NCBI RefSeq assembly: GCF_003334305.1
Contig: NZ_QOWS01000005.1
From: Escherichia coli
Lineage (GTDB): Bacteria > Pseudomonadota > Gammaproteobacteria > Enterobacterales > Enterobacteriaceae
Length of the DNA stretch: 64,000 nucleotides
Strand: one strand, 5' to 3'
Below the pieces are notes generated by a model. The model did not search any database. It was not told the DNA's origin and saw only the letters and a program-made list of their open reading frames with translations. Of the stretch, positions 48,791-55,657 are shown in pieces (within the stretch, counting starts at the first letter, position 1; the number at the start of each line of letters is the position of its first letter). The translations under genes and the position numbers were made by a program.

Positions 48791-50104
48791 ATGGCCTCAT
48801 TCGAACGTGGAATGGAACGTTTTCTTGTTCCAGTTGCTATCAAGTTAAACTCACAAAAACATGTTGCAGCGGTGAGAGATGGATTCGTTTTTACGTTTCC
48901 AATTATCATGGCAAGTTCATTAATTATATTAATTAACTTTGCCATATTATCGCCAGACGGTTTTATTGCCGGATTACTGCATCTGAATAGCATTTTCCCC
49001 AACCTTGAAAAAGCACAAGCTATTTTTACTCCGGTAATGAATGGTTCTGTAAATATCATGTCAATTATGATTGCTTTCCTGGTCGCCAGGAATATGGCGA
49101 TTAGCTATGAGCAAGATGATCTTTTATGCGGATTAACGGCAATAGGAGCATTTTTTATTGTTTATACGCCATATCAGATGATAGATGGGCAAGCATTCCT
49201 GACGACCAAATATCTCGGCGCGCAGGGGTTGTTTGTTGCTGTTATCGTTGCATTGATCACCAGTGAAATATTTTGTCGCTTAGCTCGAAACCCAAAAATC
49301 ACCATAACGATGCCGGCAGCTGTACCGCCTGCGGTAGCGCGTTCATTTAAAGTTTTATTGCCAATATTTTTTGTCATGGTGTTCTTTTCCGCACTTAATT
49401 ATTGCCTGACACTGATATCCCCGGCAGGACTAAACGATCTTATTTACACATTAATCCAGACGCCGCTCAAACATATGGGAACGAATATCTTTGCGGTAAT
49501 TATCCTGGGGGCTGTGGGTAATTTCCTGTGGGTGCTGGGGATCCACGGACCTAATACCACATCGGCAATTCGAGAAACCGTTTTTTCTGAGGCTAATCTG
49601 GAGAATCTCTCCTGGGCCGCTCAACATGGCACTACCTGGGGCGCGCCATATCCGATTACCTGGACTTCTATTAATGATGCATTCGCCAACTGCGGCGGTT
49701 CAGGTATGACGTTGGGGTTATTGTTGGCTATTTTTATCGCTTCTAAGCGTGCGGAATACCGTGATCTGGCAAAAATGTCATTTATCCCCGGTATTTTCAA
49801 TATCAATGAACCGATAATGTTTGGCCTTCCTATTGTACTTAACCCCATCATGATGGTGCCGTTTATTATGGTTCCCATTGTTAACTGTGCCATTGGTTAC
49901 TTCTTTGTTTCGATGGAAATTATTCCACCGGTTGCTTATGCCGTGCCCTGGACTACGCCCGGACCTTTAATTGCTTTCCTCGGAACCGGGGGGAACTGGC
50001 TGGCTTTACTGGTTGGTTTTTTATGTTTAGGTGTGGCGACAATGATCTATTTACCTTTTGTTATTGCCGCCAACAAAGTCAATAACATGACAACTAACGG
50101 ATAA
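48791..50104 (+). CDS. PTS lactose/cellobiose-family IIC permease
   Basis: Polytopic ORF; the track start at 48743 is TTG, so start placed at the ATG giving MASFERGMERFLVPVAIK; alternative ATG at 48782. Confidence 0.8.
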   Translation: MASFERGMERFLVPVAIKLNSQKHVAAVRDGFVFTFPIIMASSLIILINFAILSPDGFIAGLLHLNSIFPNLEKAQAIFTPVMNGSVNIMSIMIAFLVARNMAISYEQDDLLCGLTAIGAFFIVYTPYQMIDGQAFLTTKYLGAQGLFVAVIVALITSEIFCRLARNPKITITMPAAVPPAVARSFKVLLPIFFVMVFFSALNYCLTLISPAGLNDLIYTLIQTPLKHMGTNIFAVIILGAVGNFLWVLGIHGPNTTSAIRETVFSEANLENLSWAAQHGTTWGAPYPITWTSINDAFANCGGSGMTLGLLLAIFIASKRAEYRDLAKMSFIPGIFNINEPIMFGLPIVLNPIMMVPFIMVPIVNCAIGYFFVSMEIIPPVAYAVPWTTPGPLIAFLGTGGNWLALLVGFLCLGVATMIYLPFVIAANKVNNMTTNG

Positions 50105-50131
50105 TTCCATTTACCCAGGAAGGAGATTGTG

Positions 50132-50443
50132 ATGTTTGCAGATGAAGAACTTGTTATGGAGTTACTGGTCAACGCGGGGCAGGCACGTTCTGACGCGATG
50201 GAAGCCATACGTTGTGCCGGGCAAAAAGACTGGCAGGGCGCAACTCAGCTAATGGCCAGTTCTGAATCTGCCTGTCTTCAGGCACATAAGATTCAGACCG
50301 CATTAATTAGTCAGGATGAAGGCTGTGGCAAAATAAAAGTTAATTTAATTCTGATTCATGCACAGGATCATTTGATGAATGCAATATTATGCCAGGATTT
50401 AGCCAGGGAAATTATTTCATTAAGAAAAGAACTCCATGCCTGA
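50132..50443 (+). CDS. PTS lactose/cellobiose-family IIA component
   Basis: About 103 aa helical ORF; SD aggag 6 nt upstream of the ATG; track start is GTG one codon earlier. Confidence 0.75.
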   Translation: MFADEELVMELLVNAGQARSDAMEAIRCAGQKDWQGATQLMASSESACLQAHKIQTALISQDEGCGKIKVNLILIHAQDHLMNAILCQDLAREIISLRKELHA

Positions 50444-50495
50444 TTTTTTCCTCCAGTGCGATAGCTGGAGGAAATTATTATACTCTTAAGGATAA

Positions 50496-53636
<3,141 letters not shown>

Positions 53637-53692: not shown

Positions 53693-53911
53693 CTACATAG
53701 CGTGTTGATTATAATAGGGCACGCCGAGCGCATCCGACTTATCACTGCCAGTACCCATGTGATTTAAATCAAACGGTGGTTGTTCCTGCGATGGGGGAAC
53801 AACCACGACATTGGCACAAGAAGTAACAACTGGCTGCGTGGTTTGTTCCGCAACGCCCTGCGCGGAAAAGAGAATAAGCGCAGCTGCTATTGCGGATGAA
53901 AGTGGTTTCAT
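53693..53911 (-). CDS. marB: Multiple antibiotic resistance protein MarB
   Basis: 72 aa ORF MKPLSSAIAAALILFSAQGVA. Confidence 0.9.
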   Translation of the reverse strand: MKPLSSAIAAALILFSAQGVAEQTTQPVVTSCANVVVVPPSQEQPPFDLNHMGTGSDKSDALGVPYYNQHAM

Positions 53912-53942: not shown

Positions 53943-54326
53943 CTAGCTGTTGTAATGATTTAATGGATGTAAAAAGCGCGATTCGCCCTGCATATTGGTC
54001 ATCCGGTATTTATGCGGCGGAACATCAAAGTAATTTTTGAAGGTTCGGGTCAGAGTTTGTTGCGACTCGAAGCCATATCGTTCTGCCAGATAGAGTATCG
54101 GCTCGTTACTTTCCTTCAGCTTTTGCGCGATTTCCGTCATCTTACGGCTGCGGATGTATTGGCCTAATGAATGACCGGTTTCTTTTTTAAACATCCGTTG
54201 CAGGTGCCATTTAGAGTAACCTGAACGCTCTGACACTTTCTCCAGTGACAGTGGCGATTCCAGGTTGTCCTCGATCCAGTCCAAAATGCTATGAATGGTA
54301 ATAGCGTCAGTATTGCGTCTGGACAT
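53943..54326 (-). CDS. marA: AraC-family transcriptional activator MarA
   Basis: ORF 53943..54377 trimmed to [21 protein letters not shown] giving 127 aa. Confidence 0.95.
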
Positions 54327-54345: not shown

Positions 54346-54780
54346 TTACGGCAGGACTTTCTTAAGCAAATGCTCAAGTGTTGCCACTTCGTCCGCCGTC
54401 AGGTTTTTTGTTAATTCTTGGTGCAGGTCCTGGCCAACTAATTGATGGCATTGTTCACATATTGCCGCGCCGCTGGTGGTAAGTTTTACCAGTACGCCGC
54501 GCTTATCATTCGGGTTCGGCAACCTTTCAACCCAGCCTTTACAGACCAGGCGATCCAGCATACGGGTGAGTGCTCCCAGGTCGACCGACAACACTTTTTT
54601 CAGTTCAACCGGAGTAATACACGCCGCGCAGCGGATAGAGCAGAGCACCTTAAACTGTGCCGCGGTAATATCCAGCGGAGACAGATACTCGTTAAGCAGA
54701 CGATCTTTCTTCTGATTAACCATATGGATTAAGCGACCCAATGGAATAATTTCATTGAACAGATCGCTGGTACTTTTCAC
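54346..54780 (-). CDS. marR: Transcriptional repressor MarR
   Basis: 144 aa ORF with GTG start, [17 protein letters not shown]. Confidence 0.95.
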
Positions 54781-54785
54781 ATTAG

Positions 54786-54797
54786 TTGCCCTGGCAA
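54786..54797 (-). promoter_or_regulatory. MarR operator site II (palindrome TTGCC-N2-GGCAA)
   Basis: ttgccctggcaa immediately upstream of marR start. Confidence 0.7.
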
Positions 54798-54814
54798 GTA
54801 ATTAGTTGCAGGGG

Positions 54815-54843
54815 ATAATATTGCCCAGGCAAGTATAAGTCAA
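54815..54843 (-). promoter_or_regulatory. marRAB promoter (-35 TTGACT, 17-bp spacer, -10 TATTAT) containing MarR operator site I
   Basis: Minus strand reads ttgact-N17-tattat; the spacer contains the palindrome ttgcccaggcaa (54821..54832). Confidence 0.7.
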
Positions 54844-54859
54844 ATAAATGAATTGACCG

Positions 54860-54879
54860 ATGCCACGTTTTGCTAAATC
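54860..54879 (-). promoter_or_regulatory. marbox (MarA/SoxS/Rob site) of the mar promoter
   Basis: Minus strand reads gatttagcaaaacgtggcat, the mar marbox as recalled. Confidence 0.75.
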
Positions 54880-54991
54880 GGTTCAAGTTTTGGTCAATGC
54901 GATGCAAGGTTAGCTAAAGAGTGACACTTTATCCTTGTTTACCCCTTATACTTTTCGCTGATAACCCAGATACACAGGATAACAACCACCA

Positions 54992-55657
54992 ATGTTAGAT
55001 TTGTTTAAAGCAATTGGCCTGGGGCTGGTGGTGTTACTGCCGTTAGCTAACCCATTAACAACTGTCGCGTTATTTCTTGGCCTGGCAGGCAACATGAACA
55101 GTGCCGAACGTAATCGTCAGTCGTTGATGGCCTCGGTGTACGTATTTGCCATCATGATGGTGGCGTATTACGCCGGGCAACTGGTGATGGATACATTTGG
55201 CATTTCGATTCCCGGTCTGCGAATTGCAGGCGGCTTAATCGTCGCGTTTATCGGTTTTCGGATGCTCTTTCCGCAACAGAAAGCGATTGATTCACCGGAG
55301 GCGAAAAGCAAGTCGGAAGAGCTGGAAGATGAACCCAGTGCCAATATTGCCTTTGTGCCGCTAGCAATGCCAAGTACCGCTGGTCCGGGAACCATAGCGA
55401 TGATTATTAGCTCGGCGTCCACAGTGCGTCAGAGTTCAACCTTCGCTGATTGGGTACTGATGGTTGCGCCGCCGCTGATCTTTTTCCTGGTGGCGGTTAT
55501 TTTGTGGGGAAGCCTACGCAGCTCCGGCGCAATTATGCGGCTGGTGGGCAAGGGTGGCATTGAAGCGATCTCCCGTCTGATGGGATTCCTGCTGGTATGT
55601 ATGGGTGTGCAGTTTATTATTAACGGCATCCTGGAAATCATTAAAACGTACCATTAA
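54992..55657 (+). CDS. marC: Inner membrane protein MarC
   Basis: 221 aa polytopic ORF divergent from marRAB. Confidence 0.9.

Follow-up and report, generated by a model that had tools for sequence, protein, structure and literature searches.

Ser103/His137 MarR beside unaltered operator sites in Escherichia coli: a natural polymorphism relative to K-12

The mar locus

In the window (the whole 64,000-nucleotide stretch of Escherichia coli DNA that was analyzed), marC lies on the forward strand and is followed by marR, marA and marB on the reverse strand, so ordered that marR is the first gene of the marRAB operon and is divergent from marC; profile matches place the neighbours of marR as MarA, MarB and MarC (Table 1). 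The marR open reading frame matches the NCBIfam equivalog NF008565 over residues 1-144 of 144, with 320.1 bits against a cut-off of 240, and it matches MarR 3VOE in the PDB (E = 3.6e-92). The encoded protein, with serine at position 103 and histidine at position 137, is identical to RefSeq WP_000843419.1, annotated as marR in strains SE11 and H15. An initial annotation of this DNA had read Ser103 and His137 in the product of marR, and both its coordinates and its translation agree exactly with the open reading frame; Ser103 falls within the segment of residues 99-110 of the translated protein and His137 within the segment of residues 133-144. The frame is intact over all 144 codons, with neither truncation nor frameshift.

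Upstream of marR, the sequence GATTTAGCAAAACGTGGCAT at 54879-54860 is, we assume, the marbox, the activator site of MarA, SoxS and Rob; across six Escherichia sequences, 18 of its 20 positions are invariant. The two operator palindromes, TTGCCCAGGCAA (54821-54832) and TTGCCCTGGCAA (54786-54797), are both the same as in K-12. With site I in the promoter spacer and site II at the GTG start, the arrangement in the window matches the published layout of the mar operator, in which site I lies between the -35 and -10 elements and site II beside the start of marR (PMC3920692).

Table 1 Features of the mar locus in the window, with their state relative to K-12.
Feature	Position	Strand	Description and comparison with K-12	Basis
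marC	54992..55657	+	Divergently transcribed; protein identical to K-12, four synonymous changes	
Intergenic SNP 54910	54910	-	K-12 G > window A (marR sense); further upstream than 54893	
Intergenic SNP 54893	54893	-	K-12 A > window C (marR sense); 14 nt upstream of marbox	
marbox	54860..54879	-	GATTTAGCAAAACGTGGCAT; identical to K-12	Alignment
Intergenic SNP 54846	54846	-	C>T (marR sense); 3 nt upstream of -35, between marbox and -35	
marRAB core promoter	54815..54843	-	-35 TTGACT (54843-54838), 17-nt spacer, -10 TATTAT (54820-54815); identical to K-12	Promoter scan, 10/12 matches
MarR operator site I core	54821..54835	-	TTGCCCAGGCAAGTA; TTGCC-N2-GGCAA palindrome inside the -35/-10 spacer; identical to K-12	Repeat search
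MarR operator site II core	54786..54800	-	TTGCCCTGGCAAGTA; TTGCC-N2-GGCAA palindrome abutting the GTG start; identical to K-12	Direct-repeat family
marR CDS	54346..54780	-	GTG start, 144 aa, stop included	ORF list and translation
marR codon 103	54472..54474	-	AGC (Ser), K-12 GGC (Gly); first turn of helix alpha5, just past the wing hairpin	
marR codon 137	54370..54372	-	CAT (His), K-12 TAT (Tyr); C-terminal helix alpha6	
marA	53943..54326	-	Protein identical to K-12, two synonymous changes	
marB	53693..53911	-	H44Q versus K-12 (window 53780)	

Comparison with K-12

The block from marC to marB was compared with the corresponding part of MG1655 (NC_000913.3, 1616500-1621500). It is 1,965 bp long in both and colinear, with 0 indels and 19 substitutions (99.0% identity). 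Eight of the nucleotide differences are in marR, of which 6 are synonymous and 2 change an amino acid; G103S (GGC>AGC, window 54474) and Y137H (TAT>CAT, window 54372) are thus the only residues at which the MarR of the window differs from that of MG1655. Gly103 and Tyr137 are also present in the MarR chains of PDB entries 3VOE, 3VOD, 5H3R and 1JGS, and MarR of the PDB likewise differs from that of the window at no other residue. The statement in the initial annotation that K-12 has Gly103 and Tyr137 is therefore correct, and the contrary possibility, that K-12 MarR already has Ser103 and His137, does not hold. A horizontally acquired or mosaic marR was considered as well and was ruled out, because colinearity with K-12 extends over the whole marC-marB block (99.0% identity), in which the SNPs are evenly scattered and mostly synonymous.

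Compared with K-12 MarR (b1530, NP_416047; PDB 1JGS, 3VOE, 5H3R), the protein of the window is identical at 142 of 144 residues, and it retains all six cysteines, Cys80 included; the length, the GTG start and the place of the gene between marC and marA are likewise the same. No base differs between the two strains in the marbox, the core promoter or either operator site, in accord with the earlier description of these elements as present and unaltered. The broader statement that the mar operator is intact thus holds for the named elements; it does not extend to the whole 211-bp marC-marR intergenic region, which has three SNPs relative to K-12, all of them outside those elements. Apart from these SNPs, the differences between window and K-12 in this part of the locus come down to S103/H137 and the six synonymous changes in marR.

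In the flanking mar genes, the one change at the protein level is H44Q in MarB, which was found in 14 of 20 clinical strains (PMC8597741) and is another common polymorphism.

Allele frequencies in E. coli

To count alleles, 61-mers centred on each site were compared with 5,426 complete E. coli genomes, and matches in the band of at least 99% identity were taken as exact; with a 646-bp query spanning marO and marR, the identity bands are too coarse for exact allele counts, hence the use of 61-mers. At codon 137, H137 was found in 4,193 records and Y137 in 1,182. At codon 103, S103 was found in 3,008 records and G103 in 1,186, with about 1,200 further records that carry other flanking SNPs assigned to neither allele. 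Overall, the K-12 allele accounts for about 22% of the complete E. coli genomes, and S103/H137 for roughly three quarters.

An exact-sequence look-up in public data returned all four combinations of the two positions. S/H and G/Y were each present in at least 1,000 contigs, and the forms with a single substitution were present in 758 (S103/Y137) and 515 contigs (G103/H137). Since all four combinations exist, each single change is tolerated, and since both S/Y and G/H occur, positions 103 and 137 are not strictly linked.

Many unrelated strains, isolated from human, chicken, cow, pig and mouse, have the exact 646-bp marO-marR haplotype of the window (100% identity). Among the strains with DNA 100% identical over these 646 bp are the commensal SE11 and strain H15, which have the same allele and show no difference from the window; in the comparison with strains H15 and A7, the identity is 100% over 25 kb. 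The window is part of a typical wild E. coli chromosome.

Of approximately 5,420 marO/marR matches, 5 fall in records assigned to plasmids, and as many as three copies are present in some genomes; the plasmid-classed matches could be misassigned replicons or chromosomal segments borne on plasmids.

Ancestral state and variability of positions 103 and 137

Scanning one genome per species yielded 80 MarR loci. Within Escherichia, S103/H137 is present in the E. coli representative, E. whittamii, E. albertii, Escherichia sp. E1V33 and Escherichia sp. MOD1-EC7003, and G103 is present in none of the 79 other Enterobacteriaceae species representatives. The lone G103/Y137 locus (L006, SMXE01000224.1, labelled "MAG: Caldithrix sp. 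CR04bin15") is identical to the marRAB region of K-12 MG1655 at 3432 of 3432 positions; it is contamination by laboratory E. coli in a metagenome-assembled genome used as a species representative. With all Escherichia representatives carrying S103/H137 and G103 absent elsewhere, S103/H137 is the ancestral state in the genus. Judged by these distributions, S103/H137 is both the majority and the ancestral Escherichia state and the G103/Y137 of K-12 a derived minority allele, with G103 peculiar to the K-12-type lineage. The two "substitutions" are accordingly a mere consequence of taking K-12, with its derived allele, as the reference strain.

Both positions are among the most variable in the protein. 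Among the 80 loci, position 103 is occupied by D, H, E, S or G and position 137 by H, Y, L or S; in a ranking of the 144 MarR columns by entropy, position 103 is 3rd and position 137 is 6th. In an alignment of 45 sequences, 80 of the 144 columns are invariant, and the recognition helix and the wing are largely so.

The start codon of marR is GTG in most Enterobacteriaceae representatives. Five loci (L029, L032, L034, L068 and L071) depart from this, with TTG in both Salmonella loci, Enterobacteriaceae bacterium RIT691 and Pseudenterobacter timonensis, and ATG in Enterobacter sp. kpr-6; TTG or GTG is therefore found nearly everywhere, and a non-ATG start of marR is conserved almost throughout.

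Placement of the two residues in the predicted structure

The MarR of the window was modelled with AF2 on the 45-sequence alignment (pLDDT 82.8); a single-sequence AlphaFold model, with a pLDDT of 41 and no wing, was discarded. The secondary structure of the retained model consists of helices at residues 14-36, 40-48, 57-64 and 68-80, strands at 84-89 and 92-100, and helices at 102-123 and 129-142, that is, a predicted winged helix-turn-helix fold in which helices are followed by a beta-hairpin wing and then by two C-terminal helices. Under this assignment, the recognition helix spans residues 68-80, the wing 84-100, alpha5 102-123 and alpha6 129-142. Neither residue 103 (first turn of alpha5) nor residue 137 (alpha6) is thus predicted to lie in the recognition helix or the wing, i.e. 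in an element that contacts DNA. The helix that contains residue 137 presumably contributes to the MarR dimer interface, and a change there might have a small quantitative effect.

Polymorphisms between the marbox and the promoter and upstream of the marbox

Of the three intergenic SNPs, the two more distal ones reflect change in K-12. At 54910, the A of the window is common to every other Escherichia sequence aligned and G is found in K-12; at 54893, the C of the window is shared with 3 of the 5 other Escherichia sequences aligned, the remaining two have G, and A is found only in K-12. Because the bases of the window are common to all or to the majority of the aligned Escherichia sequences, K-12 is derived at both sites.

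At 54846, C is present in K-12 and most other aligned sequences, and T is present in the window and also in E. whittamii. By exact 61-mer match among the complete E. coli genomes, T occurs in 811 records and the K-12 base C in 3,942; the SNP is a common lineage polymorphism. This site bears on the possibility that the locus is functional but has a regulatory set-point quantitatively unlike that of K-12, through the C>T change at 54846 and conceivably with a contribution of S103/H137. The position itself lends this some plausibility: it lies between the marbox and the -35 element, at about -39 if transcription starts about 7 nt past the -10 element, and T there lengthens an A/T-rich stretch in which contacts of the RNA polymerase alpha subunit, or between MarA and polymerase, occur. 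Furthermore, T marks a sublineage (the 811 of about 5,400 records), and the two positions farther upstream at which K-12 is derived point in the same direction. However, none of the named elements is touched, and the spacing between the marbox and the -35 element is unchanged because the regions are colinear without indels; the T of E. whittamii, together with variation of the neighbouring bases among Escherichia species, points to weak constraint at 54846. Moreover, the literature search found no paper describing marO polymorphism. On balance, we consider a shifted set-point of this kind very unlikely.

To our knowledge, nearly all of the mechanistic work on MarR, including structures, operator footprints and induction by salicylate or copper, was done on the K-12 protein. 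There is a small chance that, with the natural S103/H137 protein and the C>T change at 54846, most wild E. coli may differ measurably from the textbook set-point of mar or in sensitivity to inducers.

MarR substitutions and resistance

The initial annotation had described G103S and Y137H as natural polymorphisms reported from susceptible as well as resistant isolates, and the literature (PMC4317672, PMC8597741, PMC7082582) bears this out; the genome counts and the comparison with other species go further, with S103/H137 as the majority and ancestral state. The combination of G103S with Y137H was the most common MarR substitution pattern in one study (PMC7082582). In another, the pair was found at levofloxacin MICs from 0.016 to 16 ug/mL and showed no significant association with any level of resistance (PMC4317672). 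A further study counts G103S and Y137H among mutations that clinical isolates often carry and for which no rise in AcrAB-TolC activity on their own has been demonstrated (PMC8597741), and repressor activity was reported to be unaffected by these MarR substitutions (PMC11753663).

Other authors have assigned a phenotype to the same residues, which would make G103S, Y137H or both partial loss-of-function changes that weaken repression, raise marA and AcrAB-TolC expression and so constitute a low-level multidrug-resistance allele. Both mutations have been stated to be known to elevate marRAB expression (PMC11504656), and acrAB expression 3- to 8-fold higher has been linked to the two changes (PMC8976530); the location of residue 137 in the C-terminal helix is compatible with such an effect. 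However, these claims of over-expression come from database calls or from comparisons of non-isogenic strains with many other differences. Recent selection for resistance cannot account for S103/H137, since most E. coli have it and it is fixed in every other Escherichia species retrieved; positions 103 and 137 rank with the most variable columns of the family; and isolates with the allele include some with the same levofloxacin MIC as MG1655 (0.016 ug/mL), again with no statistical association with resistance (PMC4317672). Partial loss of function is, in view of this evidence, extremely improbable.

The comparison with resistance-conferring marR mutants leads in the same direction. What the window shares with them is the presence of amino-acid differences from K-12, which are flagged by resistance-gene pipelines and by some genome papers. 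The lesions that confer resistance are frameshifts, stops, deletions and substitutions in the DNA-binding or dimerisation regions, and neither G103S nor Y137H is mentioned in the study that tested 36 isogenic marR alleles (PMC5890708). Unlike such mutants, the MarR of the window has no truncation, no frameshift and no change in the recognition helix or the wing, and the operator deletions and duplications of resistant mutants are absent, with the operator sites unchanged. No inactivating lesion was thus found: the open reading frame is intact, both changes are at highly variable columns and the operator is as in K-12. Nor does S103/H137 resemble a derived allele enriched in resistant isolates, being ancestral, present in about three quarters of genomes and free of association with the levofloxacin MIC (PMC4317672).

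We therefore favour, as highly probable, the reading that the marRAB locus of the window is an ordinary wild-type one and belongs to a natural lineage of E. coli, with S103/H137 MarR most likely a fully competent repressor. The G103S/Y137H pair is an already known natural polymorphism and would then be functionally silent. This reading builds on what was observed, namely the identity of the sequences, the frequencies and polarity of the alleles, the variability of the two sites and the intact operator; from ancestry, frequency and site variability, together with the published phenotypes, normal repression and induction are most likely.

If the locus works as an ordinary wild-type one, a dimeric winged-helix MarR with Ser103 and His137 would occupy both operator sites and block the marRAB promoter, so that marRAB and, via MarA, the AcrAB-TolC/micF regulon would be kept at a basal level. 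Inducers, which include salicylate and copper, would release MarR from the operator, and MarA would then autoactivate marRAB through the marbox.

The biological weight of the two residues is accordingly small, the mar locus being, as far as can be judged, normal and intact, and the value added here is limited to a clear demonstration that the reference strain, and not the window, holds the unusual allele. There is nevertheless a practical caution. Genome-survey papers still list G103S/Y137H among resistance mutations, and doing so inflates predicted resistomes; the allele counts offer a simple, citable ground for treating the pair as lineage markers rather than as resistance determinants.

Flanking regions

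Between eamA and marB, the window contains a block of about 6.2 kb (47459-53636) that is absent from K-12, in which marB directly adjoins eamA. The block encodes a GntR regulator, PTS IIB, IIC and IIA components, a carbohydrate porin and a 6-phospho-beta-glucosidase, and a 25-kb query that contains it is covered to 80% or more by about 2,510 of 5,426 genomes. In the GntR-family gene (47459-48157, reverse strand), codon 86 is a premature stop (AAA>TAA compared with SE11), and the annotation of the identical strain H15 lists the gene as a pseudogene ("internal stop"). Its product is the presumed regulator of the adjacent PTS and beta-glucoside genes, which could be deregulated in the lineage of the window.

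A scan with Rfam found no RNA families in the mar region. The only match within the window is STnc560, an Hfq-binding sRNA (282 bits, 44704-44917, forward strand), which adjoins and lies partly opposite the small-protein genes mgtS and mgtT.
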